From: Elusimicrobia bacterium UBA5214
GTDB lineage: Bacteria > Elusimicrobiota > UBA5214
Direction: 5' to 3'
Assembly (NCBI GenBank): GCA_002412545.1
Contig: DHVG01000002.1
Coordinates: 130,095-194,094, forward strand
DNA length: 64,000 bases
Shown here: positions 2,864-33,658 of the stretch, in pieces
Layout: each line of letters starts with the position of its first letter
Position numbering within the stretch: position 1 is the first letter of the stretch
Translations under genes and position numbers: made by a program
The notes under the pieces: generated by a model
Told to the model about the DNA's origin: nothing
Databases searched by the model: none
Seen by the model: only the letters and a program-made list of their open reading frames with translations

Positions 2864-3634
2864 GTGAAGAAAGAGAAATTGATATTAGGATTTGTTTGGT
2901 TTTTAATTTTTTTTGTTAGTTTATTTTCAGTAAGAATAGTTTATGCACAATTTGGTGATTTATGGGGAGAGCTGAAAACAGAAATTGAAGGTAAAAGTGA
3001 AGAAATTGTTAAAACCGAATACCTTGAACCTTTAGCGAAAGATGTCGGGAGTATTATTGGTGGGGGTTCTTTTCATACGGGTAAATCCTGTGGTTTTCCG
3101 GGATTTGACATTGGTGGACATTTACCAATGATTAGTAAACCAAGTAAAGAGAATAAAATCCTACCGGCAGAACAGATGTATGGTCTACCTTGGGTTCAAG
3201 CAGAAATTGCTCTTCCTGTACCTTCGTATGATTTAATTTTGAGAGGTTTTTATCTTGGTGAATCTGGAGGAGGGATTTTTGGTATCGGGGTTAGATATTC
3301 TTTACTTTCGGGTGTGGTTCCACTAACTCCAGCGGTCTCACTTTCAGTTTTAGCTAATCAGTTGAAACATGAAAAACTTAATGTTTATAATTTTACTCTC
3401 AACAGTGTAGTTTCTATCGGTTTACCGGCAATTACCCCTTATCTTGGGTTAGGTATTGATAGTACTACGGTACAGGAAAGAGTTTTACCGGAACATTTGG
3501 AAGCAACTGCTTCTGGTTGGCGTTTAATTGGAGGAGTAAATTTGAAACTTGTACCAACGACTTATCTCCACATTGGTATCGGTTCCTATAACGGTATTTT
3601 TGGTGGTGAGGTAGGCGTAGGAATAAACTTTTAG
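2864..3634 (+). CDS. Glycine-rich secreted or outer-membrane protein, hypothetical
   Basis: GTG start with a signal-peptide-like N-terminus (LILGFVWFLIFFVSLFSV), Gly-rich repeats and a C-terminal ...GVGINF aromatic end. Confidence 0.4.
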   Translation: MKKEKLILGFVWFLIFFVSLFSVRIVYAQFGDLWGELKTEIEGKSEEIVKTEYLEPLAKDVGSIIGGGSFHTGKSCGFPGFDIGGHLPMISKPSKENKILPAEQMYGLPWVQAEIALPVPSYDLILRGFYLGESGGGIFGIGVRYSLLSGVVPLTPAVSLSVLANQLKHEKLNVYNFTLNSVVSIGLPAITPYLGLGIDSTTVQERVLPEHLEATASGWRLIGGVNLKLVPTTYLHIGIGSYNGIFGGEVGVGINF

Positions 3635-3768: not shown

Positions 3769-6700
3769 ATGAGAATTGGTGTTGATATTGGCTCAATAAA
3801 TACAAAAATTGTTCTTCTTGACCAAGAAGATAAAATTATCTGGAAAAGTATCCTTAAACACGAAGGACAACCTTTAGAAATTGTAACTTCTTTTGTAGAA
3901 GAACTTTCTAACCAATTTGTTAGTCAAGATAATCAATTGTCTCTCAGCTTTACTGGTTCAGGAGGTGAATTTTTTGCTCGTCTTTTAGATACAGAATATG
4001 TAAACGAAATTATCGCTCAGACAAAGGCAAGGGAATTTTTATATCCGCAAGTGAAAACGATTATAGAAATCGGGGGAATGAGCACGAAAGTTATATTTTT
4101 TACCGGTGATGGTAAAAATGGGAACATAAATGATTTCGGTATGAATAGTATCTGTGCGGCAGGGACGGGTTCATTTCTTGACCAGCAAGCCAGACGGTTA
4201 GGTCTATCAATTGACGAATTTGGACAGAGAGCGGTGAAAGCAAAAAATATCTCTCGTCTTGCTGGTCGTTGCAGTGTTTTCGCAAAAACGGATATGATTC
4301 ATTTACAGCAAATGGCGACACCGGCAGAAGAAATTGTTGCTGGGTTATGTTTCGCTTTGGTGCGTAATTTCCAAGGAACAATTTTACGGGGGAGGAAAAT
4401 TGAAAAACCAATCCTTTTTCATGGTGGAGTAGCCGCAAATCCAGGGATAATCCGGGCTTTAAGAGAAATATTTGAATTAGATGATACCGCTTTAATTATT
4501 CCTGAATTATATTCTTATTTTAATGCTTTTGGGGCAACATTTTCTAAAAGTAAAGCAAAGAAAACTAATTTAACCGTGCTATTGGAAAAATTAAGGAATT
4601 CGCAAGTTGTCTTTAGACGGAAGACACTCCCACCTCTTAGCTCGGGTATTTTTGCGGACAATTTAAAAAAGACAGATAATAATCTTTTAAATTTTTCTAA
4701 TTTATCAGAAGAGATTAACGCTTACTTAGGTGTTGATGTCGGTTCAATCAGTACAAATTTAGTGGTAATTGATGAACAAAAGAACCTTTTAGCAAAACGG
4801 TATCTCTGGACTGCCGGTCGTCCCTTAGAAGCAATCCAAAAAGGTTTAAGTGAAATAGATAACGAAGTTGGGAAAAAAGTAAAAATTTGTGGTGTCTGCA
4901 CTACTGGTTCAGGTCGCTATCTTACGGCTGATTTTCTCGGTGCGGATATTGTAAGAAACGAGATTACTGCTCAGGCAACTGCAGCTAAAGAAATTGACCC
5001 GCAAGTTGATACAATATTTGAAATTGGTGGACAAGATTCAAAATTTATCACTCTTAAAAATGGTGTGATTACTGATTTCCAAATGAATAAAGTCTGTGCT
5101 GCCGGAACGGGTTCATTTCTTGAAGAACAAGCGGAACGGTTAGGGATGGAAATTGAGCAGGAATTTTCTCAATTAGCTTTAGCCGCGGATTCACCGGCAC
5201 GTCTCGGTGAGCGGTGTACAGTATTTATGGAAGAAGATTTAGTTAATCAGCAACAACAGGGAGTAAAAAAAGAAGATTTAGTTGCTGGACTTTGTTATTC
5301 CATAGTAGAGAACTATTTGAATCGTGTAGTTAGTGAAAAAAAGATTGGTAAAAATATATTTTTCCAGGGTGGTGTTGCTTTCAACCATGGTGTAGTGGAA
5401 GCATTTAAAAAAGTGCTTAAGGAAAGAGTTGGTGAGTGTAAATTTACTGTTCCTGAGCATCACGAAGTTACCGGTGCACTTGGTTGTGCCTTGATTGCTT
5501 TAGAAAATGCGTGTAGTTCAACTGCCGGGCATTGTTTTTCCACTAACTTTAAAGGTTTTGATTTAGCAAAAAGAAAATACGAACTGAAGAGTTTTGTCTG
5601 TCCGGACTGTGCTAATCATTGTGAAATAAAAGAAGTTGTTGTTGAAGGCGAGAAATCTTTATTTTATGGTTCAAGATGCGAAAAATATGAAATTAACCGT
5701 TTTAAAGTGAAAAGAAATATTCCTGACCTTTTTGCTGAACGAGAGAAACTTTTACTTAGCACTTACCATTCACCACTTACCACTTACCACTCACCAATTC
5801 GTATCGGTATTCCCCGCTTTTTTACTTTTTATGAATTTTACCCTTTTTTTAATTGTTTCTTTTCTGAATTAGGTCTGCAAGTAGTTCTTTCTGATTCAAC
5901 CAACCGCAAGATTATTAATCAAGGTTTAGAGAATGTACCGGTAGAATCATGTTTTCCCCATAAGGTAAGTCATGGACATATTTTGAATTTATTAGATAAA
6001 AATGTTGATTATTTATTTCTACCGAGTGTGATTAATTTTCCAGCAATTCAGAAAAGTATTAATAACAGTTTTACTTGTCCTTATGTGCAGACTTTACCTT
6101 ATGTGCTTAAAGTAAGTTTAGAAGAAAAAATAAAAGAAAAAAAGGTAAAAATTCTTCAGCCGATACTGTATTTCAGGGAAGAAAAGTTATTGTTTGAAGC
6201 AATGAAAAGGATAGCCCAACAATTGGGTTTTAAGGGAAAGAAAATAAAAAAAGCTTTCCTCCGGGGACTGGAAATACAAAATACTTTTTCTCAGCAATTG
6301 AAAGAACGCGGTAGAGAAATATTAGAACAATTGTCAGAAAATGAAAAAATTTTCGTTATTGTAGGTCGTTCATACAATAGTTATGATCGGGGGATGAATT
6401 TAGAAATAGTAAAAAAAATAAATAATCTCGGGATACTTACTTTACCGCTTGATTTTCTCCCTTTAGACAATGTGGATATTTCCGAAGAATTCCCGAATAT
6501 GTACTGGCTTTTTGGACAAAGGTTTTTAGCGGCAGCGGAAATAATTAAAAAAGATAGACGTCTCTATCCTCTTTATTTAACAAATTTTGCCTGCGGTCCG
6601 GATTCTTTTATTCTTAAATATTTTAGAGAAAAAATTTTACCTAAACCTTTCTTGGAAATTGAAATTGATGAACATAGTTCCGATGTAGGAATTATTACCC

Positions 6701-8689: not shown

Positions 8690-10318
<1,629 letters not shown>

Positions 10319-10637: not shown

Positions 10638-10947
10638 CCAAAAAATTGACAGATGAGCAGTTTTTATTTTAATTTCTGGGCGTTTTGATGGATGATGAGA
10701 AACTCTCTTTCTCTCTCGTAGTATTTTGTCTTAATCAGCACGAATTTATACGAATTCAATCACGAATTTTTACGAATAATGTAGTTGCCGAGTTTGCTCG
10801 GCAGATGTTTTTAAACCGAACTTGTCCTGAATCGTATGGTTCAGGATTTGTTCTCCCCGATGGTCATCGGGAAGAATAGTTCGGTTTTTTTATTTTTCAA
10901 AGGAAGAAGTATTCCAAAAAAAAATTTTTTAAGGGGGTGTAAAAAAA

Positions 10948-12482
10948 TGAGCAGAAGAAACAAACGACTCATCATTGGAACAATTTTGGTAATTGTTCCT
11001 TTAGCCGTAGTGTTTCTATCTAAGTTTGTGCTTCAGGGAGCATCTTCAGTGCCTAAACTCAATGCGATTAAGGTTACTACTCCCCCTATGCTTGATGGTG
11101 ACGCCTCGGATGCAGTGTGGCAAACTGCCCCGGAATTAAAGGTAACTATAAATGGAAGCTGGGCAACAAGCCCCGTAACTGTGGCGGGGCAGGGAGGGGG
11201 AACAGCAACGGAGATAACTATCCCCTGGGTTAAACTTAAGGCACTCTATACCGATACCACCCTTTATGTCCTGGCTACCTGGCCAGATTCAGACTTAAGT
11301 ATCACCAGAGGGGGTGGATGGGATTGGACTGGAACTGCCTGGACTAAACACAGTGGTCAGGCGGAAGATAGGCTTGCCTTTTGGTGGCCAATCAATGTTC
11401 CCAAATTTGAGAGTATCGGTTGTAGAGCAAAATGTCATATGCCGGATGCTCATCCTGATTGTTATACGGCAGGATGTCATATGAAGGATAATCATCCTTC
11501 AACCACAGGATTGGAAGATGAATGTTATGTTCAAACTGGTGAAAGAGCAGATAAATGGCATATGAAAGCAGCACGTTTTCTTGGTGTAAAAAGTGCAGCA
11601 CAATCAGGAGTTGTGGTGGTAAATCCTACTACCCACGAGGTAACCGGCGGTAAAGTTACTTTAATTGGCTACTGTGATGATAAGCATACTACAGAGTATG
11701 TTGCTGACAAAGATGGCGGTAGAAGAGGAGATAGTGGTTCCGGTGCTACTACGGATAACCGAAATGCTATCAAAACCTCACCTAAGTATATGGAATCTAA
11801 TCCGGATAATTACATTGATGCGATGATTCTTACTCAAACAGAAATTAACAACGGTGAGACGATTATTGTTGATACCACCGGAGTAACCGGTGCGTATGCT
11901 GGTGATGACGCAGTTACCTCTGCTTGGAGTAAATACAGTAGTTTTAATGCCTGTGTACCGGAAAATATTCTAAAAGAGCCATCCGGTAGTCGAGGGAATA
12001 TAGAACAAGCGGCTACTTGGGAAAATGGAATCTGGACCTCTGAATTTAAAAGAGCACTGCTCACCAGTACTACTGACCAAGATGTTCAGTTTAGCGATTT
12101 AACCAAAGAATATTCTTTTGCGGTAGCGGTGATGGATAATAGTGGTGGGGAGGAACATTTTTGGCAGAAGGATTATCAGAACTTAGTTTTTGTGACACTG
12201 ACACCGGCGGCGAGGATAGTAGAAAATGTAGTTGCTTATCCCAGTCCATTTAATCCCAAGACAGGTTTACTTAAGTTCGCTAATGTACCGGCGGATGCGA
12301 CAATTGAGATATATACTTTAACCGGTGAACTGGTTTACACCTTAGAAAATCCTACGAGTTCCGCGATAGTAGAATGGGATGGTAAAAATGAAGATGGAAA
12401 AATTGTCGCTCGTGGTATTTACATCTATCGGGTTAAATCAGGTGGGGATGAAGTAAGAGGAAAATTTGCGGTAGTGAAATGA
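10948..12482 (+). CDS. Secreted cell-surface protein with a T9SS-type (Por/FlgD-Ig-like) C-terminal sorting domain. The N-terminal region has CX3CH/CX4CH motifs.
   Basis: Strong RBS (aaggggg) at ATG 10948 and a signal-anchor MSRRNKRLIIGTILVIVPLAVVFL. The last ~80 aa (AYPSPFNPKTG...IYTLTGELV...WDGKNEDGK..ARGIYIYRVKSG...KFAVVK) match the T9SS CTD pattern. CRAKCH and CYTAGCH motifs are present. Confidence 0.6.
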
Positions 12483-12519
12483 AACGAAGATTAACTCAAT
12501 GAATGGGGAGGTGGAGAAG

Positions 12520-13428
12520 ATGAATTTCTTAAAAAAATTTAGTATTTTATTTCTTACTCTGTTTTTAGTTATTCCGGATTTAGTTTTAGCCGGTGAAGCC
12601 GAGGTAGGCACAACTGCGGCTAATTTCTTAAAGATTACACCGAACACAAAAGGTAGTGCAATGGGTGAAGCGGAAGTTGCGGTCGCTGATGATGTCAACG
12701 CTATCTATGCTAACCCGGCGGGATTAAGCAAGGTCACTGCTAAAGAAGCAACTTTTACCCATTTAGTGTGGTTAGAAGAGATTAGTTACGAATCTATCGG
12801 TTACGCTCAGGTTTTGAAAAATATCGGCGTATTGGGAGTAAACCTTGCTTATCTTTACACGGATATTGATAAGTTTAGCGAAACTTACGATTATCCTTGC
12901 TACAAAAAAGAGGGAACCTATAAAGTAAGCGATATGGCGATTACTCTTGCCTATAGTCGTAAAATTTCGGAGATTATCTCTGCGGGAATAAGTATCAAAT
13001 CTATTTCTGATAACATTGATGGAGATACAGTCAGCGGAATAGCGGTAGATATCGGTGGGTTATACAATACACCGATAAAGAATTTAACTGCGGGCTTGAG
13101 TTTACGCAATCTCGGTGGTTCCTTAGGTGATGATAGTTTACCGGTTGCCTATATTCTCGGTGCAGGCTATAAACTTTATGAAGAAAGATTAACTTTGGTT
13201 TGTGATTTAGTTATCCCTGTAGATAATAAAATCGGTTTAAGTTTCGGTGCGGAGTATTGGTATGCAGGGAAACTTGCTCTTCGCTTAGGTGGAGAAATAG
13301 GGGGTGAGTTAGGCAATTTCGGTGCAGGAATAGGGTATAAGTTTAAAAATTATCAGATTGATTATGCGCTTATACCTTATGGCGGTCTTGGGCTTACTCA
13401 TCGTATTTCTTTCTCAGCAAAATTTTAA
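12520..13428 (+). CDS. Outer-membrane beta-barrel protein of the PorV/PorQ-like family (T9SS-associated)
   Basis: Signal peptide. GTTAANFLKI..GSAMGEA.VAVADD.NAIYANPAGL is an N-terminal motif typical of the PorV/UPF0164 family. The C-terminus ends with aromatic ...SAKF. Confidence 0.5.
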   Translation: MNFLKKFSILFLTLFLVIPDLVLAGEAEVGTTAANFLKITPNTKGSAMGEAEVAVADDVNAIYANPAGLSKVTAKEATFTHLVWLEEISYESIGYAQVLKNIGVLGVNLAYLYTDIDKFSETYDYPCYKKEGTYKVSDMAITLAYSRKISEIISAGISIKSISDNIDGDTVSGIAVDIGGLYNTPIKNLTAGLSLRNLGGSLGDDSLPVAYILGAGYKLYEERLTLVCDLVIPVDNKIGLSFGAEYWYAGKLALRLGGEIGGELGNFGAGIGYKFKNYQIDYALIPYGGLGLTHRISFSAKF

Positions 13429-13576: not shown

Positions 13577-14275
13577 TTGCAAATGATTAGTGATAATCTA
13601 AAAAAAGTACAAGAAAAAATAAATTTTACTTGTCAGAAAATTGGACGTAATCCAGAGGGAATAATTTTAGTTGCGGTAACAAAAAATGTGCCGGTAGAAA
13701 AAATTAAAGAAGTAATTTTTTTAGATGTAATAAACATTGGTGAAAACCGTGTGCAGGAAGCGCTCAAGAAGTATAGCGAATTAGCCATTAGCCATCAGCC
13801 ATCAGCTATCAGCCAAGTTAAATGGCATCTGGTTGGACATTTGCAAAAGAATAAAGTAAAATATGCCTTGAAAATATTTGACCTGATTCACTCAGTTGAC
13901 GATTTTGAGTTAGCCGAAGAAATTGATAAACAGGCAAAAAAAATTGGTAAAATCCAGGATTGTCTAATTGAAATAAAAGTTTCACCGGAAGTGACTAAAT
14001 ACGGTTGTCCACCCGAACCGGAAGAAGTTAAAAAGTTAATTGAGCGAATTAGCGAATTAGCGAATATTCGTATTCGTGGTCTAATGGCAATGGCACCGTT
14101 TTTTGAAAAATCCGAAGAGACTCGTCCCTATTTCCGTCAAGCATTTGAATGCTACTCGTTACTTGCTACTCGCTACTCGCTTACTTACTTATCAATGGGT
14201 ATGTCTAATGATTTTACTATTGCTTTAGAAGAAGGTGCAAATATGTTGCGTATTGGCACAGCTATATTTAAGTAA
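13577..14275 (+). CDS. yggS: YggS-family PLP homeostasis protein (alanine racemase N-terminal fold)
   Basis: ILVAVTKNVPVEKI..., GENRVQE and MGMSNDF.IA..EGAN.LRIGTAIF match. It lies upstream of proC, as in many bacteria. Two in-frame tandem-repeat insertions (13781-13815, 14151-14192). Confidence 0.8.
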   Translation: MQMISDNLKKVQEKINFTCQKIGRNPEGIILVAVTKNVPVEKIKEVIFLDVINIGENRVQEALKKYSELAISHQPSAISQVKWHLVGHLQKNKVKYALKIFDLIHSVDDFELAEEIDKQAKKIGKIQDCLIEIKVSPEVTKYGCPPEPEEVKKLIERISELANIRIRGLMAMAPFFEKSEETRPYFRQAFECYSLLATRYSLTYLSMGMSNDFTIALEEGANMLRIGTAIFK

Positions 14276-16001: not shown

Positions 16002-16814
16002 ATGTTAAAACAAAAGATTGTCTTTCTTGGTGCTGGGAATATGGGGGAAGCGCTGATTAGCGGGTTAGTAAACAGCGGTTTAGCCGGTAAGGGACAGATT
16101 ATTGCTACCGATATTCGTACGGAAAGACTGGTTTATTTAAAGAAAAAATTCGGAATCCAGGTTAGTGAAAATAACAAAAAAGCAGTTCAACAAGGGGAGA
16201 TAATTGTTTTAGCCGTCAAACCACAACAGATAAAGGGGTTATTAGGTGAAATAGGTGATTGGGTGAGAAAAGAGCAGTTAGTAATTTCAATTGCGGCTGG
16301 TATTCCTACCAAATATATTGAAAAATTTTTCCAGCAGAGAGTACCGCTAATCCGAGTAATGCCAAATACACCAGCATTAGTTGGTGAAGGGGTTACTGTG
16401 CTTACACCGGGTAAATATACAAATGAAAAGCATTTAAAAATAGCGAAGAAAATTTTTTCTGCAGTTGGTTATGTATCTGTATTACCCGAAAAATTACTTA
16501 ATGCAGTTACTGCTCTTTCCGGTTCAGGTCCGGCGTATATTTTCTATCTTGCTGAAATTTTAGATGAAGCAGCAAAAAAAATGAATCTACCCGAAGAAAC
16601 TGCTTGTGAATTAGTCACCCGGACAATTCTTGGTGCAGGAAAAATGCTCAAAATTACTGGTGAATCAGGGCGAATGCTCCGACAGAAAGTTACTTCTCCT
16701 GGTGGCACTACTGAGGCAGCAACAAAGTATCTGCAAGCAAAGAAATTCAAAGAAATATTTATTCAAGCCCTCTTCAAAGCACGGAAACGTGCCCAAGAAC
16801 TTGCACCAAAATAA
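16002..16814 (+). CDS. proC: Pyrroline-5-carboxylate reductase
   Basis: IVFLGAGNMGEAL..., MPNTPALVGEG and LSGSGPAY.F...EAL are ProC signatures. Confidence 0.88.
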   Translation: MLKQKIVFLGAGNMGEALISGLVNSGLAGKGQIIATDIRTERLVYLKKKFGIQVSENNKKAVQQGEIIVLAVKPQQIKGLLGEIGDWVRKEQLVISIAAGIPTKYIEKFFQQRVPLIRVMPNTPALVGEGVTVLTPGKYTNEKHLKIAKKIFSAVGYVSVLPEKLLNAVTALSGSGPAYIFYLAEILDEAAKKMNLPEETACELVTRTILGAGKMLKITGESGRMLRQKVTSPGGTTEAATKYLQAKKFKEIFIQALFKARKRAQELAPK

Positions 16815-16930
16815 ATCAAATTATTCTAATAATTCTAATTAATATATAAGTAAAACGTGTTGTTTTGAAAATAGCCAACCGTATTTTTTACCCATTGACA
16901 AAATAGAAAAATAGATTATACTTATAATTA

Positions 16931-17060
16931 GGAAACGATAAGGGCAAACTCCTCCCCCGTTGTAACTTTGGGGGATCTCGATGGTTTACCTTCGGGAGAG
17001 AAATCGGAGGACGCAAAGCTACGGGGCTAAATCCACTGTCTGTGGATAAGTTGGCCGGGC
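16931..17060 (+). ncRNA. Putative cyclic-di-GMP-I (GEMM) riboswitch aptamer in the pilT leader
   Basis: AAGGGCAAAC...GGACGCAAAGCUACGGGGCUAAA matches the conserved GGGCAAAC / GGACGCAAAGCC...GGCCUAAA blocks of GEMM-I (Vc2-like). A candidate terminator/expression-platform hairpin sits at 17104-17170 (gccgagttacc...ggtaactcggc + tttt). Confidence 0.55.
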
Positions 17061-17197
17061 TGCCGAAAAGATTTAGGTATCATTCATTTGGCAGTGGATA
17101 TGCTCGCCGAGTTACCGAAAAAACGATAAAAAGTAAAACAAAATTTGAATAAGGTAACTCGGCTTTTATTTTGAGGGGAGAGGAGGAGTAATTAAGA

Positions 17198-18319
17198 ATG
17201 AAAATTGATGATTTATTGCGTTTGATGGTTTCAAACCGTGCTTCAGATTTGCATTTGAAAGCCGACACTCGTCCTTTATTGAGGATAGACGGAGAACTGA
17301 TTCCCGAGGATAAATTACCTGAATTTTCCAGTGCAGAAATCTGGGAACTGGTTTGCCAGATGATTGGCGAAGAGCAAAAAGATAAATTCACTCAGGAAAA
17401 AGAATTAGATTTTGCCTATAATCTATCCGGTTTAGCAAGATTTCGTGTAAACACCTATCTACAAAGAGGACAAATTGGTGTTTCAATAAGGGCGATTCCC
17501 TGGGATATTCCTACCTTAGATAAATTGGGATTTCCACCAGTGATTAAGGAGTTAGCTCTTAAACCGAGAGGTTTGGTCTTGGTCACCGGTCCGACGGGAA
17601 GCGGAAAATCAACAACTCTCGCGGCAATCATCAATTATATCAATGTTAATCGGCGTTGTCAGATAATTACTATTGAAGACCCGATTGAGTTTGTGCATAA
17701 AAATAAATTGAGTAATATTGACCAGCGCGAGTTAGGTAGTGACACTCTCTCCTTTGCTAATGCTTTGAAACATGTCCTCCGACAAGACCCGGATGTAATT
17801 TTAGTTGGTGAAATGCGCGACTTGGAAACAATCGCTTTAGCGATTACTGCTGCGGAAACCGGGCATCTAGTTTTTTCTACTTTGCATACTACGGGTGCGG
17901 CAGCAACCATTGACCGGATTATTGATGTTTTCCCACCAACTCAACAATCTCAGGTAAGGTTGCAAATTGCTACACTCTTGGAGGGGGTAATCTCTCAGAT
18001 TCTTTTACCCTGTGCGGATAGTAAAGGAAGAGTTGCTGCTTTAGAGATTATGATTTCTACTCCGGCGATTCGCAATCTTATCCGGGAGAATAAAGTTTTT
18101 CAGATTTCTTCGGTGATGCAAACCGGTGTTTCTTCAGGAATGCAGACACTTGACCTTGCTTTGAAGAAACTATGTGAAGAAAAACTGATTACTTACGAAG
18201 AAGCATTAACTAAGTGCAGCGAGCCGGAACAGTTTCAAAAAATGCACTCTGCGGGTAAATTCAGAGAGACCAAATTTAGTTCCCCAGCACCAATTTCTGG
18301 CAATGTCGTTCCTGCATAA
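17198..18319 (+). CDS. pilT: Type IV pilus retraction ATPase PilT
   Basis: Walker A GPTGSGKST, ITIEDPIEF, the Asp box and GMQT..L are PilT/PilU family motifs. Confidence 0.85.
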   Translation: MKIDDLLRLMVSNRASDLHLKADTRPLLRIDGELIPEDKLPEFSSAEIWELVCQMIGEEQKDKFTQEKELDFAYNLSGLARFRVNTYLQRGQIGVSIRAIPWDIPTLDKLGFPPVIKELALKPRGLVLVTGPTGSGKSTTLAAIINYINVNRRCQIITIEDPIEFVHKNKLSNIDQRELGSDTLSFANALKHVLRQDPDVILVGEMRDLETIALAITAAETGHLVFSTLHTTGAAATIDRIIDVFPPTQQSQVRLQIATLLEGVISQILLPCADSKGRVAALEIMISTPAIRNLIRENKVFQISSVMQTGVSSGMQTLDLALKKLCEEKLITYEEALTKCSEPEQFQKMHSAGKFRETKFSSPAPISGNVVPA

Positions 18320-18407: not shown

Positions 18408-18436
18408 TTGACACCACCCCCCCGTCAAGATATAAT
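18408..18436 (+). promoter_or_regulatory. Consensus sigma70 promoter (TTGACA-17-TATAAT) with an A/T UP tract
   Basis: TTGACA 18408-18413 and TATAAT 18431-18436, with upstream acaaaaaattttttttt. Confidence 0.6.
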
Positions 18437-18643: not shown

Positions 18644-19282
18644 GTGAGAGAAATGGGAACAAGAGCAAATTTTCTCAAAGTTGTATTGGTGACTACCATC
18701 GGTATTGGTATTGGGTTATTCATTCCGCGTATTGCTGGAACTCATTGTGATACGCTTGATGGTCCGGTAGTAACGACCGCAAAGACGGCTTTAGAGAAGG
18801 GTGATGTAACTCCGGTTCTCAAGTGGGTGAGTAAAGAATATGAAAATGAAATTCGTGACTTGTTTAAGAAGACACTGGCGGTAAGAGGTAAAAGTCCGGA
18901 AGCAAAAGAACTTGCCGATATGTATTTCTTTGAAACATTAGTACGGCTACATCGTGCTGGTGAAGGTGCACCTTACACTGGTCTTAAACCTGCTGGTGCC
19001 GTAGAACCTCCGGTAGCGGCAGCGGATAAAGCATTGGAGATGGGTAATGTTGATGGTTTAGTAAAAAATATAACCGACCATACTGCTGCGGCGATTCGTG
19101 AACGGTTTAATCGTGTCATTGAAACAAAAAAACATATGGACGAAAGTGTTGAAGCAGGACGAGAATATGTAGAAGCATATATTGAGTTCACTCATTATGT
19201 AGAACGACTCCATCTTACTGCCCACGGTGCCCCTGGACATCACGGTGAACCGGAAGGGAAAGAACCGGAACATAAACACTAA
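18644..19282 (+). CDS. Secreted His-rich hypothetical protein (HCDTLDGPVV motif), co-operonic with a multiheme cytochrome
   Basis: Signal-like N-terminus and a C-terminal HGAPGHHGEPEGKEPEHKH tail. It sits 41 nt upstream of the cytochrome gene. Confidence 0.5.
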   Translation: MREMGTRANFLKVVLVTTIGIGIGLFIPRIAGTHCDTLDGPVVTTAKTALEKGDVTPVLKWVSKEYENEIRDLFKKTLAVRGKSPEAKELADMYFFETLVRLHRAGEGAPYTGLKPAGAVEPPVAAADKALEMGNVDGLVKNITDHTAAAIRERFNRVIETKKHMDESVEAGREYVEAYIEFTHYVERLHLTAHGAPGHHGEPEGKEPEHKH

Positions 19283-19323: not shown

Positions 19324-20580
19324 ATGCGAAGGTTTAATTTATGTGCAATTTTTATTGTAATGGTTAGTTTTATCTTCGTTTCCGGCGCATCAACACAAGA
19401 ATGTGTTGATTGCCATAAAAAGGTCACCCCAAACATTGTCTCTGACTGGCAATTAAGCAAGCACGGTCAGATTGGGATTGGTTGTTCAATCTGTCACGGT
19501 AACGAACATAAATCTGCAGAAGATGTAGCGAAGGCGAAAATTCCTCTACCCGAGACCTGCGCCACCTGTCACAAAACACGTTTTGAACAGTTTAAGGGAG
19601 GGAAACATGCTTTCGCTTGGGCAGCAATGAAAGCGATGCCTACTGCTCATTGGCAACCAATGGCACTAATGGAAGGGATGAAAGGTTGTGGTGGATGTCA
19701 TAAGATTGGATTAAAAACCGAGGATGAAATTAAAGAGTTAAAAAAAACTGGTCCCGGGTTTGGTCTTGCTTCCTGTGATGCTTGTCATACTCGGCATACT
19801 TTCTCCATTGAAGAAGCTCGTCAGCCACAAGCCTGTGAAACCTGCCATATGGGTTTTGACCATCCACAATGGGAAATGTATTCCACTTCCAAACATGGTG
19901 TTCGCTACTTATTGAAACAAAATAAAGTACTTCCGGAGACAGTTGCTGCACCAACTTGTCAAACCTGTCATCTGCAGGAAGGTAATCATAAAGTCAAAAC
20001 CGCTTGGGGATTCCTTGCGGTGCGCCTGCCGATGCCTGAGGATAAAGAATGGGCTTCTGACCGTGCAACTGTTCTTCAAGGGCTTGGTGTGCTTGACCCG
20101 GAAGGTAAACCAACTGCCCGGTTGGATATTGTTAAAGCAGCCGATGTTGCCCGGTTGACTCAAGAGGATTGGCAAAAAGAACGGGATAAGATGCTGAAAA
20201 CCTGCAATCAATGTCATTCTCTCAACTTTGTGAAAGGGGAATTAGAAAAAGGTGACCGGATGATTAAAGAAGCGGACCGTTTGATGGCTGAGGCAATTCG
20301 CATCGTTGCGGATTTATACAATGATGGTATACTTGCCAAACCGAAGAATTATGCTTACACATTTCCCGACTTGCTTACCTTCCACGATGCACCGACAGTG
20401 ATTGAACAGAAACTTTTTGTGATGTATCTGGAACATCGGATGAGAACATTCCAGGGGACATTTCACGCTAATCCTGATTATGCATTATGGTATGGTTGGA
20501 GTGAAATGCAGCGTGACTTCACCGAGATTAAAACCATCGCTGAAGAACTGCGGACGAGAACAAAAGAAAAGAAAAAATGA
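19324..20580 (+). CDS. Octaheme c-type cytochrome (HAO/ONR-superfamily-like)
   Basis: Signal peptide plus eight canonical CxxCH motifs (CVDCH, CSICH, CATCH, CGGCH, CDACH, CETCH, CQTCH, CNQCH) in about 400 aa. Confidence 0.8.
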   Translation: MRRFNLCAIFIVMVSFIFVSGASTQECVDCHKKVTPNIVSDWQLSKHGQIGIGCSICHGNEHKSAEDVAKAKIPLPETCATCHKTRFEQFKGGKHAFAWAAMKAMPTAHWQPMALMEGMKGCGGCHKIGLKTEDEIKELKKTGPGFGLASCDACHTRHTFSIEEARQPQACETCHMGFDHPQWEMYSTSKHGVRYLLKQNKVLPETVAAPTCQTCHLQEGNHKVKTAWGFLAVRLPMPEDKEWASDRATVLQGLGVLDPEGKPTARLDIVKAADVARLTQEDWQKERDKMLKTCNQCHSLNFVKGELEKGDRMIKEADRLMAEAIRIVADLYNDGILAKPKNYAYTFPDLLTFHDAPTVIEQKLFVMYLEHRMRTFQGTFHANPDYALWYGWSEMQRDFTEIKTIAEELRTRTKEKKK

Positions 20581-20600: not shown

Positions 20601-21722
20601 ATGGTAAATCCGCGCTATCAGAAACGTTTAGAAAGATGTGGTCATTTGATGAAAGAAACCGGACTGGATGTTATTCTGCTCAGTAAACCGGCTAATCTGT
20701 TTTATCTTACCGGTGACGGTCGTCTCTGTGCCTACGCGATGGTTACGCAAGGAGGTAAAGTTGCTCTTGGTGTTCCGCAGACCGATGTGGAAGATGTCAA
20801 GCAGGTGGCACATTTTGACCATCTTGTTGGTTTTGAAGATGAGGTGGGGATGATACATTCTATTGCGCATTACTTTATGCATTTTAATATTAGTAAAGGT
20901 GTATTGGGGCTGGAATATACTTTTCTCACTCAAGTAATGATGGGAATGTTTACCCATCCCCATGCCAAGCCGAAAGGGGTAACGGTCAAGGACTGTACCC
21001 ATATTATGTCTGAACTGCGTATAGTCAAGGATGCCGAGGAAATTGAAAATATCCAGAGAGCAGCAAAAGTGGCTGATGTGGGAATGGATGCGGCAGTAAA
21101 AGCGGTGAAACCAGGTCTCAGCGAAAGCCAAATTGCTGCCGAATCCGAGTATGCAATGCGGCAGAACGGTGCTGAAGGTTTTTGGCGAACTTATGTCTCC
21201 TCGGGTCCGCGGACAAATATTGCTCACGGGTTACCTACATTACGCAAACTGCAAAACGGTGATTTGGTAATGATTGATGTTCATCCAATTGTTAATGGTT
21301 ACAGTGCGGATATGTGTCGGACAGTATGCGTGGGTAAACCAACGGTAGAGCAGCAAACCGCTTAAGATTTGTATTTAAAAGCACAACAGGCAACCATCAG
21401 CAAAATCAAAGCCGGGGTCAAGATAATGGAGCTTGAAGAGACATTGCACGGAGTGCTTAAAAACGCTGGACATAGTGAGCATATTTTCGGTCCACCGATT
21501 CACGGTGTCGGTATAGAGTTTGAAGAAGCACCTTTACCACCTGGACATGCTTTTTTCCACGGTGAAAAAGAACCACCACCTTTAGAAACTAATGTAGTCA
21601 TTTCGGTAGGTAATTGCGGCTTGTATACTGGTCCTTGGGGTGTGCGCGTGGAAGACACGGTAGTTGTTGGTGCCGAGGGACCGGTTGTTCTCACCGGTTA
21701 TCCACGAAAATTGGGGAAATAG
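20601..21722 (+). pseudogene. M24-family Xaa-Pro aminopeptidase/prolidase interrupted by a single in-frame TAA at 21363-21365
   Basis: ORFs 20601-21365 and 21369-21722 are in the same frame. The junction ...GKPTVEQQTA*DLYLKAQQATI reads continuously across the stop. Metal-ligand motifs (H..GHG..H, E..V) lie in the second part. Confidence 0.55.
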
Positions 21723-21775
21723 GTGTGACCATTTCTCAAAAAGATAAAGAACTGCAGGCAGGACAACACCGTCCC

Positions 21776-22895
21776 TCAGTAGAATTTGTTAACAACGAAT
21801 TTAGCAATTCGACAGGCAGCATCAGGGAGAGAAAACTTTTTTACACGATTTTGTAATTCCTTAATTTTTTCCGGTGAATTAACCAGTTTGACAATCAAAG
21901 AGACAATTTTATCCGGTTCGGTCTCCACATAACCAAGTTCATGTTTCTTAATTAGTTCCGCATTACCTTCTTCCTGCCCGGGAGTAATATGGGTAATGAT
22001 TATCGGTTTACCAGCAGCAAGACATTCGGTTACAATTGCTCCTCCAGCTTTAGTTACCACTAAATCCGCTGCCCGTAAGTAATTAGCCATATTATCTACC
22101 CAGGAGAAAATGCGTGTTGACGGGAAATATTTTCTTTTGCTTAATTCTTGGTAAACATTCTCATACTTGCCGCAGATTACCATAATCTGTCCAGGTAGAC
22201 CTACATAATTGCTTAACTTCTTAATTACTGCAAGCAATTTTTCTATTTTTCCTAAACCAAGGGTGAAAAGGATAGTCGGCACTTCCGAGTTTAATCCTAA
22301 ATCGTTAAGGAATTTGTTCCGATTGAAAGGTTCACCAAGTTCAGGATTTACTGGGAAACCAAAGACCTTGATTTTTTCCGGATTAACCCCTTGGTTTATA
22401 ATTACTTCGGCAGTATCTTGGTTCGGAACAAAATAGTAATTGACTAATTCACTTAGCCACGAATAGTGTATAGAAATTGAGTCAGTAATTACCATTAAAT
22501 ATTTTATTTTTTGGTTAAACTTTTCGTTATATACTTCAAGGATATAATTCCAGTAAGGATGAGTAGAAATAAGCAGGTCCGGTCTCTTTTCGTTGAAAAG
22601 TTGGTAAAATGGTTTATAAAAAGGTTCAGTAAAAATGTTCATAATCCGGAATATCTGTTTACAGTTGGTAAGACGGTAGGTTAAGTCCCAGAGGGAAGGA
22701 CAATATTCAACACTTTTTTCGTAGTAGTTACGGGCAAAATTGGTAATTAAAGGATTACCAATTTTTACTAAATCAAGCACCTCAGTTTCTACTTCTTCCG
22801 GGTATCCGCCGATTTGGCGGATTGCTTCATTGAGATAACGTGCGGCAGTTAGATGTCCTGAACCATAACTTGCGGTTAAAATGAGGATTTTTTTC
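21776..22895 (-). CDS. Monogalactosyldiacylglycerol-synthase-like glycosyltransferase (MGDG_synth N-domain plus GT1 C-domain)
   Basis: MKKILILTASYGSGHLTAARYL start with RBS agagga. The C-terminal GT-B block (VTKAGGAIVTECLAAGKPIII...PGQEEGNAE) is present. Confidence 0.7.
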
Positions 22896-22997
22896 ATTTT
22901 GAAGTAATTCCTCTTAGCACTGATTACTACAGATAAAGACCCTGATGACCACGGATAAATCTGCGTAATCTGGTCTCTAATCTGTGTAATCTGCGTT

Positions 22998-24710
22998 TTA
23001 CATTTTTTCCGGTGCAGAAACACCGATTAAGTCCAACCCGGTTCGGATAATTGTTCTTACTGCTTCTACTAAACTTAGCCGGGCTAAAGTCAAATTCCTA
23101 TCTTCGGAAATTACCCGATATTTTTCGTAATAACGGTGGAACAAATTAGCCAACTCCAAGAGATAGACCGCTAAATTGTGCGGACTTAAATTTTCTGCAC
23201 AAGTTACCAGAATATCCGGGAAAAAAGAAAGTTTTTTTATTAAGTCAAGTTCTGATTTTTCTTTCAATAGTTGATAGTTGATAGTTAATAGTTGATAGTT
23301 GATTCCTTCTTTTTCTGCCTGACGGAAGATACTTACTGCACGCGTATGTGCGTATTGGATATAGTAGACCGGATTTTCCGGGGATTGTTTCTTTGCCAAG
23401 TCAAGGTCAAATTGTAATTGTGCTTCCGGTGAACGGGTAAGAAAGAAATAACGACAGGCATCTTTTCCTACCTCATCCAGTAATTGTCGCAGAGTAACAA
23501 ATTCACCTGCCCGGGTAGACATTGCTACCGGTTGTCCTTCACGGATAAGACTTACCAACTGGTAAAGAATAATCTGTAACTGCTCCGGTTTGTAACCGAG
23601 GGCTTTTATTCCGGTTTTCATCCGGGCAATGTATCCGTGGTGGTCAGCTCCCCAGAGGTTGATTAGGCGGTCAAATTTTCGTTCCAATTTATCCCGGTGG
23701 TAGGCAAGGTCACCAGCTAAATAAGTTGGACGGCCGTCAGCACGAATCAGAACCCGGTCTTTCTCATCGTTCCCTAAGGTAGATTTGAACCATAAAGCAT
23801 TGTCTTTTTCGTAGGCATATCCCTTCTCTTTCAGTTGAGAAATTGTCTCTTCCACTTTTTTCTTTTGGTAAAGGTCGGACTCGGTGGACCAAATATCAAA
23901 TTTAATACTAAAATCTTCCAAATCTTTTTTGATGTCTTCAAGGTTTTCTTCCATAGCGATTTTGGAAAAATAACTTTCTGGTTTCTTTTCTATATCGGCT
24001 GGAGTAAGAACTCCTGCTCTTTCTTGACGGGCTATCTTTGTAGCCATTTCTATAATATCCTTTATATACTCCCCACGGTATGCAGCATTATTTAACCATT
24101 CTTCTTCTTCCGGTGTTAATTTCTTCTTAAATATGAATTCTTTTATTCTTAATTTTACCGTTTTACCTAAGTTTTCAATCTGGTTGCCGATATCATTGAT
24201 ATAATACTCCCTTTTTACTTCCCAACCGAGAAAAGAAAAAATTCTGGCTAAAGAATCACCGATTGCTGCACCTCTGCCGTGTCCGACATGGAGCGGACCG
24301 GTAGGATTTGCCGAGACAAATTCAAAAAGTATTTTTTCTCTTTTACCTAAGTTTGTTTTTCCATAATTTTTTCCTTGTCCTAAAATTGTTTTTAATTCTT
24401 GATAAACTCTTTCTGGAGCAAGAGAAAAATTGAGAAAAACCGGGGGCATAAATTCGACTTTAACGAACGGAGAAGAGGGAGTGATAAGTGAAGGGATAAT
24501 TTTATTGGTAATCTCCATAATCTCCACGGCTGGTTTATCTATCTCCTGACTAATAATTGAAACAATATTACATGACCCATCAGCAGAAATGTGTGCAGGT
24601 GGAATTTCTACCGTAGGTTTTGGTAGTTTTCTATTCTCAGGAATAATTTTTTCTTTTTTTAGTTGTTCAATCAGCTGGTCAATAAAAGTATAAATTTCTT
24701 CTTTAATCAT
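22998..24710 (-). CDS. argS: Arginine--tRNA ligase
   Basis: Class I HIGH motif (PTGPLHVGHGRG), the anticodon-binding DALK domain and a C-terminal ...VSAPEKM. It contains an in-frame TAGTTGA tandem repeat (23266-23303). Confidence 0.95.
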   Translation of the reverse strand: MIKEEIYTFIDQLIEQLKKEKIIPENRKLPKPTVEIPPAHISADGSCNIVSIISQEIDKPAVEIMEITNKIIPSLITPSSPFVKVEFMPPVFLNFSLAPERVYQELKTILGQGKNYGKTNLGKREKILFEFVSANPTGPLHVGHGRGAAIGDSLARIFSFLGWEVKREYYINDIGNQIENLGKTVKLRIKEFIFKKKLTPEEEEWLNNAAYRGEYIKDIIEMATKIARQERAGVLTPADIEKKPESYFSKIAMEENLEDIKKDLEDFSIKFDIWSTESDLYQKKKVEETISQLKEKGYAYEKDNALWFKSTLGNDEKDRVLIRADGRPTYLAGDLAYHRDKLERKFDRLINLWGADHHGYIARMKTGIKALGYKPEQLQIILYQLVSLIREGQPVAMSTRAGEFVTLRQLLDEVGKDACRYFFLTRSPEAQLQFDLDLAKKQSPENPVYYIQYAHTRAVSIFRQAEKEGINYQLLTINYQLLKEKSELDLIKKLSFFPDILVTCAENLSPHNLAVYLLELANLFHRYYEKYRVISEDRNLTLARLSLVEAVRTIIRTGLDLIGVSAPEKM

Positions 24711-28508: not shown

Positions 28509-29063
28509 TCAATCTACACGAAAACCTATTTTCTTTTCAGGTTGCTTCGGTGGTGCCAGTAATTTATTTATAAGTTCAAAGACGACTTTAAATTGACGGT
28601 CATATTTCTTTTCCATTTCTTCAATTTTTCTTTTCAAATCTTCGTGTGTTGATAATATCCGTCTCAATTTTGCAAAAGTTCTCATAATCTGGATGTTCAC
28701 ATAGATAGCTCTTTTGCTATTTAATACACTGGAAAGCATAGCCACACCCTGCTCAGTAAAGGCGTAAGGGAGATATCCTCCTAAACTCCTTTTTGATGGT
28801 ATCACATTTTGTGATACCAAGATTTCTGCTTCTTCCTTAGTAAGTTTTAACATAAAGTCTTCCGGAAAACGGTCTTTATTTCTTTTTACCTGTTGTCTTA
28901 GAGCGATAGGTTTTACTCCGTAGAGTTCTGCAATGTGCCGGTCTAAAATTACATTTAATCCTTTTATTAAAAAGATTTTATTTTCTATTCTTTCTTGTGG
29001 AACTATTTCTTGAATTGTGCTTTCATCTTTTTTCATTTTTTTCACCTGACAATGGTTCGGCAT
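28509..29063 (-). CDS. ORF6N-domain protein (KilA-N/Bro-N-related, antirepressor-like)
   Basis: IRGQ-like ...ILDRHIAELYGV...LRQQVKRNKDRFPEDFMLKLTKEE...GGY.PYAFTEQGVAMLSSVL.S.RAI.VNIQIMRTF matches the ORF6N consensus almost residue-for-residue. Confidence 0.75.
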   Translation of the reverse strand: MPNHCQVKKMKKDESTIQEIVPQERIENKIFLIKGLNVILDRHIAELYGVKPIALRQQVKRNKDRFPEDFMLKLTKEEAEILVSQNVIPSKRSLGGYLPYAFTEQGVAMLSSVLNSKRAIYVNIQIMRTFAKLRRILSTHEDLKRKIEEMEKKYDRQFKVVFELINKLLAPPKQPEKKIGFRVD

Positions 29064-30225: not shown

Positions 30226-30564
30226 TTATGAGTATCTTTCTTCTTGTCCAGTATGCAATTCAGGAGAATAAAGCTCGTATGTTGATAAATGGTGTTCATA
30301 CCTCACTAATTTTTCTTTTTCCAGTTGATACAATATATAGTCAAGTTCGTCAGTCGGTATATCCGAGAATGCCTGGGCTATCTCCTCACGAGAAAACACT
30401 CTGGTTCCCGGTACTTTTTGTTGTTCTTTCCTCAGCCAATTGAGAACGCTTAGTTTTCTTTTTTCCTTTCTTCCTACAAACCATTTCCATAATAACTTGT
30501 AAAGTAGATTGATAATTTTTCCTTTCACTTTTCTATTTTTCCACTTTCGGATAAATGCCGTCAA
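30226..30564 (-). CDS. Small basic hypothetical protein (possible wHTH regulator) overlapping the R-M gene start
   Basis: Lys/Arg-rich N-terminus and C-terminal SREEIAQAFSDIPTDELDYILYQLEKEKLV. It overlaps the start of 30533-33658 by 32 nt. Confidence 0.3.
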   Translation of the reverse strand: MTAFIRKWKNRKVKGKIINLLYKLLWKWFVGRKEKRKLSVLNWLRKEQQKVPGTRVFSREEIAQAFSDIPTDELDYILYQLEKEKLVRYEHHLSTYELYSPELHTGQEERYS

Positions 30565-33500: not shown

Positions 33501-33658
33501 TCAGTTTTCTTTGGTAGAGTGGTAATATGGATATTTTTTTTGCCGACCGATTCTATATATTCCTGTAGTAATCCTTCAAGGATTGAGTAGTAACTCTCTT
33601 CCCTTGCGTCTCCATGTTGGGCAACTCCAAAGATTTTTTCTAAATATGCTTTCAACAT
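30533..33658 (-). CDS. MmeI-like Type IIL/IIG restriction-modification enzyme: N-terminal PD-(D/E)xK nuclease, N6-adenine MTase and a C-terminal TRD
   Basis: DFRVWDGSQHIVGYIEAKEP is a D-x13-EAK nuclease motif at the N-terminus. MTase motif I is VLDPAAGTLTFL and motif IV is IFGNPPYSG (NPPY). Total length is 1041 aa. Confidence 0.75.
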   Translation of the reverse strand: MLKAYLEKIFGVAQHGDAREESYYSILEGLLQEYIESVGKKNIHITTLPKKTEAGNPDFRVWDGSQHIVGYIEAKEPKNEDLDQTEETEQLKRYRHTFPNLILTNFFEFRRYHNGTLIDKVLIGRPFIVHKLKTVPPVEKEQDFVKLLEKFFSFSLPKVYDAKTLAIELANRTRFLRDEVVAQELKEEEEIGKGFILGFYEAFRKYLISGLTKEDFADLYSQTITYGLFAARTRSENEFNRKLAYDKIPPTIGILRDVFHFISLGKPSQQMEWIIDDISEVLAVTDVKNILHKYFHEGKGKDPIVHFYETFLAEYDPQTREKRGVYYTPEPVVSYIVRSLHRILKEHFNRKDGFASELVTVLDPAAGTLTFLAEASKLVVNEFVHKYGEGGKENLIREHILKNFYAFELMMAPYAVGHLKMSFLLEELGYELKDDDRFKLYLTNTLEMEELAQTELPGMVSLSEESHLAGKVKKETPILVIFGNPPYSGHSYNVGEWISKEIKVYYQVDGKPLGEKNPKWLQDDYVKFIRFAQWKIDQAGEGILGFITNHSYLDNPTFRGMRQSLMNSFNEIYILDLHGNITKEKGKCPDGSKDGNVFDIRQGVAIALFIKKKDEKRECEVHHSDLWGLQEKKYDWLLKNDIKTTKWQKISLKSEFFYRFIPTERKLFKLYYSYPKITDIFLANSVGIVTARDNLTIKWKPEEVWQTILNFSKLDPELARQAYSLGKDARDWKVELAQKDLEESGLDKKKIVPILYRPFDIRYTYYTGKSRGFHCMPRPEIMYHMLAGENLGLITIRRSRSVEDWRYAFVTDKVVAGATSITALDINYLFPLYLYQEKKDNPKKRSLGSVIMLFEPQADYGAKKPNLSPEIVEQLTKEFKKIPSPEQIFFYVYAILYSNIYRTRYAEFLKMDFPRIPLTKDYKLFSKMAEYGKRLVDLHLLKSAELDPPVAKFQGKGNYKIEKVKYEKGRVYINNEQYFEGIKPEIWKYQIGGYQVCDKWLKDKIGTTLNDIKPYCKIVTALQKTIEVQKLIDGIYPKVEK

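Follow-up and report, generated by a model that had tools for sequence, protein, structure and literature searches.

In the aptamer of class I cyclic di-GMP (c-di-GMP) riboswitches (GEMM-I elements), helix P1 has by definition a stem of 2 bp and one of 6 bp, separated by an internal loop of 3 nt, and ends in a GNRA loop (Weinberg et al. 2007, PMC1950547). The linker between P1 and P2 is AAA in nearly all cases, and in type 1 representatives a GAAA loop on P1 goes with a tetraloop receptor in P2 (PMC1950547). The published gene table of the class lists pilM, pilO, pilQ and pulF, and GEMM-I elements, which are widespread, precede genes for pilus assembly in Geobacter, among others (PMC1950547). 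The element described here lies in the leader of a pilT gene in the window, i.e., the whole stretch of 64,000 nt that was analysed (from the uncultured Elusimicrobia bacterium UBA5214, contig DHVG01000002.1, positions 130,095–194,094). The leader (16931–17197, +) is non-coding and is situated between proC and pilT. The published pilus targets and the present one have the same riboswitch class in the 5' untranslated region (UTR) of a type IV pilus/secretion gene; they differ in the target itself, pilT being absent from that table.

The structurally solved riboswitch Vc2 (leader of Vibrio cholerae VC1722) shares with the present element the Rfam family, G20, the GACGCAAAG core, the 3' CC and the GAAA loop on P1; it differs in the downstream gene, in the host phylum and in P1, which is a simple hairpin in Vc2, whereas two inserted hairpins (45 nt) are found here. 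The CUAAA-type receptor in P2 presumably resembles that of Vc2. An RNA-level link between c-di-GMP and type IV pili is common to the present locus and to Clostridioides difficile, whose riboswitch reportedly belongs to class II, is unrelated in fold and switches genes of pilin and assembly ON; in the present locus the aptamer is of class I and is predicted to be an OFF switch on the retraction motor. According to the text citing the work, the C. difficile element is connected with the pilA1 type IV pilus locus and with aggregation, reportedly promoted at high c-di-GMP (Bordeleau et al. 2015, cited in PMC6916266). Bc1 of Bacillus thuringiensis has two compact terminators 28 bp apart and is unresponsive in vivo (PMC11218506); it is like the present leader in its class I aptamer, in an unusually long platform with an intrinsic terminator and in possible mixed effects on transcription and translation, and unlike it in the number of terminators, one with a 36-nt loop being found here together with a clearly conserved antiterminator. 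At the protein level, c-di-GMP promotes extension and represses retraction in V. cholerae via MshE (PMC7096442). The predicted direction here is the same as for MshE and for FimX/PilB of P. aeruginosa, high c-di-GMP giving extension and adhesion and less retraction by PilT (PMC7096442); those systems are post-translational and act on the extension ATPase, whereas the predicted target here is transcription of the gene of the retraction ATPase. Known c-di-GMP control of type IV pili operates on proteins (MshE, FimX/PilB) and, through RNA, on pilin and assembly genes.

Judged by its sequence, the element in the pilT leader is a genuine class I c-di-GMP riboswitch with c-di-GMP as the predicted ligand; we regard it as fairly probable that it works through a terminator/antiterminator platform as an OFF switch on pilT. 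The whole 64-kb window was searched on both strands with cmscan (Rfam 15) at gathering thresholds; a single match was obtained, RF01051 (c-di-GMP-I) at 16933–17067 (+): 59.8 bits, E = 3.6e-9, model positions 1–87 complete; no other Rfam family was found on either strand at these thresholds. The gathering threshold of RF01051 is 35 bits, so that the score is well above it. The same complete aptamer gave 59.8 bits in the orthologous leaders L081 and L082 and 58.2 bits in L083. A GEMM-I riboswitch in this leader had been proposed in the initial annotation on the strength of two conserved blocks, and both are in place: GGGCAAAC at 16942–16949 (+) and GGACGCAAAGCUACGGGGCUAAA at 17009–17031 (+).

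The three predicted ligand contacts all fall in invariant model columns: G16943, the intercalating A17015 that follows GACGC, and C17063. The roles of the G20, intercalating A and C92 equivalents in ligand contact are those given in PMC6140456. G16943 stands directly 5' of the G-C pair of P1a, and its equivalence to G20 (Vc2 numbering) follows from the model alignment, the mapping to Vc2 being presumptive. The conserved 3' CC (17063–17064, +) is the invariant CC of the model, and C17063 presumably corresponds to C92, the residue that pairs with one of the ligand's guanines (PMC6140456). The linker between P1 and P2 is AAA (A17015–A17017, within GACGCAAAGC). The aptamer ends 130 nt before the ATG of pilT on the same (+) strand, i.e., in the configuration of a 5' regulatory element. 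Every family-defining feature that could be tested is present, and the element is therefore a member of RF01051 and not a new class.

The P1 domain departs from the simple hairpin. In the cmscan alignment, a 53-nt insertion occupies the P1 tip that normally bears the GNRA tetraloop and for which the model expects ca. 8 nt. The segment 16949–17009, folded alone and without constraint, gave a perfect four-way junction (−23.9 kcal/mol, z = −2.7 vs. shuffles), this being its minimum free energy (MFE) structure; in the complete domain (16944–17014, +) all 23 pairs are canonical and no junction nucleotide is unpaired. The domain is composed as follows: P1a, G16944-C16945 paired with G17013-C17014; an internal loop, AAA 16946–16948 opposite GAC 17010–17012; a closing stem CUCC/GGAG, 16949–16952 paired with 17006–17009; hairpin A (16953–16975), UCCCCCG/UGGGGGA, 7 bp with a 9-nt loop; hairpin B (16976–16997), UCUCGA/UCGGGA, 6 bp, followed by a U·U mismatch, GG/CC and the loop UUUA; and the canonical P1 tip (16998–17005), in which GA/UC (2 bp) closes the GAAA tetraloop 17000–17003. 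The canonical P1 is accordingly intact (GC/GC, AAA, the 6-bp stem CUCC+GA/UC+GGAG and the GAAA cap), and hairpins A and B together are an insertion of 45 nt between C16952 and G16998, in the 5' strand of P1, 2 bp below the tetraloop. An alternative description, the 53-nt insertion as a replacement of the tetraloop (three-way junction without GNRA), was rejected, the CUCC+GA/GAAA/UC+GGAG arrangement restoring the canonical 6-bp P1.

P2 is a hairpin at 17017–17061 (+; 5' strand 17017–17036, loop 17037–17041, 3' strand 17042–17061) with 15 of 15 pairs of the model structure canonical. Its internal loop, CUAAA 17027–17031 opposite UAAG 17047–17050, is tetraloop-receptor-like and aligns to the model columns CUAAg/uAuG. 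The P1 and P2 helices with the GNRA tetraloop–receptor pair can thus form, and the sequence assigns the aptamer to type 1 GEMM-I, with the GAAA tetraloop on P1 and the receptor in P2; docking of the two across the four-way junction would be a matter of three-dimensional structure. An outer P1 helix between 16931–16937 and 17064–17074 and a pairing of GGAAAC with GUUACC were rejected, as they amount to no more than 2–5 pairs and are not conserved in L083. The intact parts listed above show that P1 of GEMM-I can accommodate a four-way junction without loss of the tetraloop, the receptor or any predicted ligand contact, a point of use for RNA structure work, biosensor engineering and those annotation pipelines in which long insertions are penalised.

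The expression platform consists of a switching sequence and a terminator-like hairpin. The switching sequence (antiterminator strand) GGCAGUGGAUAUGCUCGCCGAGUU at 17090–17113 (+) mimics the 3' strand of P2; with 17017–17040, the whole 5' strand of P2 plus loop, it can form 20 canonical pairs. This alternative pairing is the MFE structure of 17015–17152, i.e., of the transcript before the terminator 3' arm, and the equivalent pairing is likewise the MFE structure in L083. Energies of the alternative duplex: −25.8 kcal/mol, z = −4.06, 0.05% of block shuffles as good (window); −25.0 kcal/mol, z = −3.3 (L083); that of the natural P2 duplex is −18.4 kcal/mol, vs. −25.8 kcal/mol for the alternative. 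At the apex of the alternative fold lies the variable linker 17068–17087 (+), whose sequence is not conserved in L083, where it is 4 nt longer. The alternative helix excludes P2 and buries 17106–17113, the first 8 nt of the terminator 5' arm; in both orthologues a conserved helix is therefore mutually exclusive with P2 and with the terminator.

The intrinsic-terminator-like element (17106–17172, +) is formed by the stem GCCGAGUUACC (17106–17116) paired with GGUAACUCGGC (17153–17163), a 36-nt A-rich loop and the U-tract UUUUAUUUU (TTTTATTTT at 17164–17172, directly 3' of the stem). The stem is a perfect 11-nt inverted repeat with 6 G-C pairs (arm duplex −22.2 kcal/mol); ca. 0.01 repeats of this length are expected by chance in a 320-nt region according to our estimate. 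The order of a G+C-rich stem and a U-tract is that of an intrinsic terminator, and termination at this site is plausible from the sequence. A hairpin with a U-tract had earlier been placed at 17104–17170; its existence at the expression-platform position was borne out, and the coordinates were corrected to 17106–17172. An open reading frame of nine codons overlaps the switching block and the terminator 5' arm: 17100–17129, AUG CUC GCC GAG UUA CCG AAA AAA CGA UAA (MLAELPKKR). The same frame and length are found in L083 (MLAELPKKK, then stop) despite the differing loop sequence; the frame is preceded by no convincing Shine-Dalgarno (SD) sequence and may simply mirror the conserved block.

A second antiterminator was considered, in which the P2 3' strand (17043–17060) pairs with 17102–17117 (−18.4 kcal/mol). 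It was rejected: the isolated segment gave z = −0.8 and so has no stability beyond that of shuffles, the pairing is not the MFE structure in L083, and the change of G17053 to A in L083 breaks one of its pairs.

With P1 kept and the transcript ending at 17116–17152, the antiterminator state has −60.9 kcal/mol and the aptamer state (P1 + P2) −56.6 to −57.8 kcal/mol. Ligand binding was taken to contribute about −3 to −7 kcal/mol (nM–pM dissociation constant, micromolar ligand), and a gap of 3–4 kcal/mol at the decision point is, in this model, of a size that ligand binding and tetraloop docking together can overturn. When the aptamer was held fixed in the fold of the full leader, the terminator formed. 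The following course is proposed. Without ligand, 17090–17113 would invade P2 and pair with its entire 5' strand; the first 8 nt of the terminator 5' arm would be hidden, and RNA polymerase would read through into pilT. With c-di-GMP bound, P2 would be locked by the ligand and by tetraloop–receptor docking, the block 17090–17113 would stay free, the 11-bp hairpin with its U-tract would form, and transcription would stop near 17168–17172, leaving pilT off. High c-di-GMP would then mean less of the pilus-retraction motor, which fits a sessile, adhesive state. A direct link between c-di-GMP and pilus retraction, as suggested at the outset, would be the consequence predicted from the order of aptamer and gene. 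If so, the riboswitch on the gene of the retraction motor would be a simple node: second messenger up, retraction motor down.

The conservation pattern agrees with such a platform. The exact PilT protein was found on five metagenome contigs with identical leaders (L081 and L082 among them), and the only diverged orthologue is L083 (NCBI GCA_040961635.1; PilT 92% identical), in which the gene order yggS–radical SAM (rSAM)–proC–leader–pilT is the same as in the window. L083 retains the promoter hexamers, the aptamer throughout, with both inserted hairpins, and the 3' arm of the terminator with its U-tract; scrambled there are the linker 17068–17087, the 36-nt terminator loop and the SD region. 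The block 17088–17122 (35 nt) is 100% conserved between scrambled flanks. Changes within paired elements preserve pairing: in hairpin A the stem is kept and the loop is altered from GUUGUAAC to GAUCUAAC; in hairpin B, U16978 to C turns U·G into C-G; in the terminator, C17163 to U turns G-C into G·U; and distal P2 is remodelled from AUCCAC-UGUCU-GUGGAU to AUCCAUC-UGCC-GAGGGAU with its pairing kept. The altered P2 loop is still complementary to the invariant GGCAG of the switching block, a U·G pair becoming C-G.

Several points weigh against the switch as proposed. Only two distinct orthologous leaders are available (window type and L083), which makes covariation support for the platform thin. 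The terminator is part of the full-length MFE structure whether or not the aptamer is constrained, and the coupling must therefore be kinetic. The complete terminator state exceeds the full antiterminator in stability by ca. 7–8 kcal/mol and includes a 3-nt toehold; in this energy model the antiterminator might be displaced by it. A terminator scan with a loop limit of 3–8 nt did not call the hairpin 17106–17172, its 36-nt loop falling outside the compact-loop criterion. Finally, among c-di-GMP-I riboswitches that have a long platform, some fail to respond in vivo (Bc1, PMC11218506).

Alternatively, the hairpin and U-tract could be a constitutive attenuator or terminator that ends a short riboswitch transcript; the element would be non-responsive, or would serve mainly as a terminated small RNA or c-di-GMP sponge, pilT being expressed by leaky read-through or from another promoter. 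The terminator does form in every thermodynamic prediction and is more stable than the antiterminator, and Bc1, a bona fide c-di-GMP-I aptamer, shows that regulation can fail (PMC11218506). What speaks for a responsive element instead is the 35-nt block, perfectly conserved amid scrambled neighbours, the co-variation of the P2 loop with it, and the closeness of the aptamer and antiterminator states (within 3–4 kcal/mol) at the decision point; moreover, no other promoter-like site is present between 17172 and 17198. Constitutive termination is thus considered unlikely.

About equally unlikely is a translational layer of opposite or additional logic. The SD sequence of pilT is GGAGG (17182–17186, +), 11 nt before the ATG, and an anti-SD tract ACUCCUCC (16948–16955) could pair with GGAGGAGU (17182–17189) when the aptamer is unfolded; c-di-GMP would sequester the anti-SD tract in P1 and free the ribosome binding site (ON switch, or band-pass in combination with termination). 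The 8-nt complement is perfect, the full-leader MFE structure of the window pairs CUCCUCCCCC with GGGG-A-GAGGAG, leaving the SD almost fully paired in the ensemble, the C-rich tract of P1 and hairpin A is the best upstream partner of the SD (−20.9 kcal/mol in the window, −13.4 kcal/mol in L083), and incoherent control of transcription and translation has a precedent in Bc1 (PMC11218506). Yet ca. 0.8 complements of 8 nt are expected by chance in 320 nt (our estimate), and a CCUCC tract is a complement of any SD. Conservation is lacking in the SD region, where L083 has AGAGGGGGAA; in L083, the MFE structure keeps the P1 junction and the SD is ca. 40–55% unpaired, so that anti-SD sequestration is specific to the window and was set aside. 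Hairpin A, furthermore, forms locally and early, the P1 domain (−24 kcal/mol) lies outside the conserved alternative pairing, which involves P2 only, and the anti-SD logic combined with termination would leave pilT off in both states. The terminator/antiterminator OFF switch remains the preferred reading.

The four-way-junction P1 was looked for in other GEMM-I aptamers. A pattern scan of metagenome contigs for the invariant GEMM-I core with a 44–74-nt gap in P1 gave 98 matches, most of which were discarded as decoys, in which GGCAAA happened to occur upstream of a canonical aptamer. Firm variants are L099, L113 and L141, to which the Rfam model aligns with a long insertion at 48.9–53.5 bits, above the gathering score; each of them folds into a closing stem, hairpin A, hairpin B and a GAAA-capped tip. 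L090 and L091 were not counted as firm, since cmscan favours an alignment starting inside the insert, although a junction reading is possible. Closing stem and tip total 6 bp in 7/7 variants (L090 and L091 included, with ambiguous registers); between loci, hairpins A and B show no relationship in sequence. The genes downstream of the other four-way-junction aptamers encode a PAS-GAF-HD-GYP protein, a secreted amylase and a GH1-like enzyme. The architecture is thus recurrent, being present in at least three unrelated metagenomic GEMM-I aptamers besides that of the window, and is not tied to pilT. No description of a junction insertion in GEMM-I P1 was found in the searchable literature, which is absence of evidence only. 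In L091 (4932–5061), the loop of the presumed hairpin B contains AAAAAGGGCAC, resembling the aptamer's own 5' core, and cmscan gave 59.5 bits from inside the insertion; the sequence hints that some P1 insertions could stem from partial duplication of the 5' half of an aptamer. Tandem canonical GEMM-I aptamers, ca. 165 nt apart, were noted on two soil-metagenome contigs: L115 (− strand, 54–148 and 220–315) and L151 (+ strand, 143–236 and 308–404).

The same variants bear on the identity of the ligand. Vc2 position 20 is G in c-di-GMP sensors and A in GEMM-Ib, which senses 3',3'-cyclic GMP-AMP (cGAMP) (PMC6140456). A single Rfam model covers both GEMM-I and GEMM-Ib, this position being their main difference (PMC6140456), and an aptamer for another cyclic dinucleotide such as cGAMP, or a bispecific one, could in principle hide behind the RF01051 match; the A expected of GEMM-Ib is, however, not found, the window having G16943 and all 7/7 four-way-junction sequences (window, L083 and the five other variants) having G. 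From G16943 the predicted ligand is therefore c-di-GMP and not cGAMP, and the cGAMP assignment is very improbable.

The gene downstream of the leader, pilT (17198–18319, +), encodes a type IVa pilus ATPase of the PilT/PilU family (373 aa; TIGR01420, 471.5 bits, cut-off 319.1 bits, residues 3–344/373 covered), and its identification in the initial annotation holds. Membership in the PilT/PilU family is clear; the choice between PilT and PilU and the role in retraction are predictions from sequence. Both the Walker A sequence GPTGSGKST and the AIRNLIRE motif, which we take to be significant for proteins of this kind, are present in the translation. Upstream of the leader lies proC (16002–16814; TIGR00112, 270 bits). 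A sigma-70-type promoter-like site is located at 16895–16922 (+): TTGACA 16895–16900, 16-nt spacer, TATACT 16917–16922, 11/12 matches to the consensus. The initial annotation had recognised this site and placed it at 16886–16920; the hexamers stand and the position does not. The site ends 11 nt upstream of the aptamer, and both hexamers are identical in L083; promoter-like sites as such are not enriched in the region (5 found vs. 4.8 expected). The predicted transcript start is at ca. 16929–16931, which would give a 5' UTR of ca. 268 nt. A site with 12/12 matches to the sigma-70 consensus (TTGACA-17-TATAAT) was observed at 18408–18436 (+), between pilT and the following DUF6448 gene; it points to a monocistronic pilT and to a separate promoter for the next gene.

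No pilus machinery that could be served by this PilT is visible in the 64-kb window. A GspE/PilB-type assembly ATPase is encoded at 39109–40662 (−; TIGR02533 623 bits, TIGR02538 598 bits, both just below the equivalog cut-offs); it is flanked by histidine kinases and response regulators and not by pilus structural genes.

A GEMM-I core in front of pilT was found at 0/80 other PilT loci among the matches listed; PilT relatives on genome contigs, among the matches listed, all have ≤58% identity and none carries a GEMM-I core upstream; and in none of ca. 75 sampled GEMM-I aptamers does pilT follow directly. Literature searches gave no report of a GEMM-I element directly on pilT. On L139 (pilT-like gene 5520–6566, GEMM-I 14054–14148) and L152 (pilT-like fragment 34–285, GEMM-I 2929–3024), an aptamer is situated a few kb downstream, in the same orientation; regions with pilus genes do contain GEMM-I elements repeatedly, those of L139 and L152 not being directly upstream of pilT. 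The next PilT relatives, L084–L088 (66–67% identity), are encoded at Elusimicrobiota-like loci that have no leader; a gene of a cyclic nucleotide monophosphate (cNMP)-binding domain (PF00027) ends 2–28 nt before pilT (examples: L084, 2528–2998; L088, 1446–2973). In this arrangement, cyclic nucleotides may be linked to the same motor gene in another way, through a protein. In L088, the PF00027 gene is preceded by genes of a GAF-HD-type protein and of a PilB with an MshEN domain.

The host and the distribution of the locus were assessed with neighbouring genes. GroEL (8696–10318) is 100% identical to a protein labelled Elusimicrobia bacterium at NCBI, Endomicrobiales being next, and five contigs with GroEL of 91–93% identity (L187, L188, L190–L192) were used as congeners. 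The riboswitch-pilT cassette is absent without remnant from 5/5 congener contigs in which the flanking synteny is kept, and is thus accessory; it sits at a junction of convergent genes. The multihaem cytochrome gene (19324–20580) and the M24 peptidase gene (20601–21365) are likewise absent from the synteny-keeping congeners, and the DUF6448 gene (18644–19282) is found among them in L187 and L188 only. In L083 the gene after pilT encodes a different protein of 657 aa, so only the riboswitch and pilT travel together. The gene orientation turns from + to − (convergent) at ca. 21.4–21.8 kb, and the cumulative GC skew peaks at ca. 24 kb (positive to the left, negative to the right); such a pattern, in the region ca. 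21400–24000, would be expected at a replication terminus, and the accessory cassette lies right beside it. That the aptamer is a chance match or a decaying, functionless remnant, for which the accessory nature of the cassette, its absence from congeners and the single known orthologue might be adduced, is hardly credible with E = 3.6e-9, all invariant positions intact and an L083 aptamer far better conserved than the flanking non-coding DNA, with pair-preserving changes.

A wider proposal is put forward tentatively, and we think it rather doubtful: that the two-hairpin P1 insertion is a distinct, recurrent sub-architecture with a function of its own, and that the riboswitch-pilT cassette is a transferable module for RNA-level control of retraction by c-di-GMP in Elusimicrobiota. 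The insertion could tune the kinetics of folding or ligand binding, supply the anti-SD tract for a band-pass translational layer, or bind a second factor. To our knowledge, c-di-GMP signalling in Elusimicrobiota is essentially unstudied. The regulator class is well known; the additions of the present case are its target gene and host phylum, the four-way-junction P1 and a specific, testable OFF-switch model. The general understanding of c-di-GMP riboswitches is unchanged by them, and their importance is moderate.

Other loci of the window were noted in passing. Between groEL and yggS are genes of an EB_dh-domain protein with a FlgD-Ig domain (10836–12482, +) and of a PorV/PorQ-family protein (12499–13428, +), both absent at that position in 5/5 congener contigs. 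A multihaem protein of HDH-like type and a match to a ladderane-type rSAM enzyme are also present; an anammox planctomycete as host, which these two might suggest, was rejected, GroEL placing the host in Elusimicrobiota. A Type ISP restriction-modification enzyme (30533–33658, −; PF18135 290 bits, and N6_Mtase) and a 184-aa open reading frame (28509–29063) are situated between proA and pdxA; in the congener L190 the equivalent aldehyde-dehydrogenase and PdxA genes overlap by ca. 20 nt, and so the Type ISP region looks like a small defence insertion.

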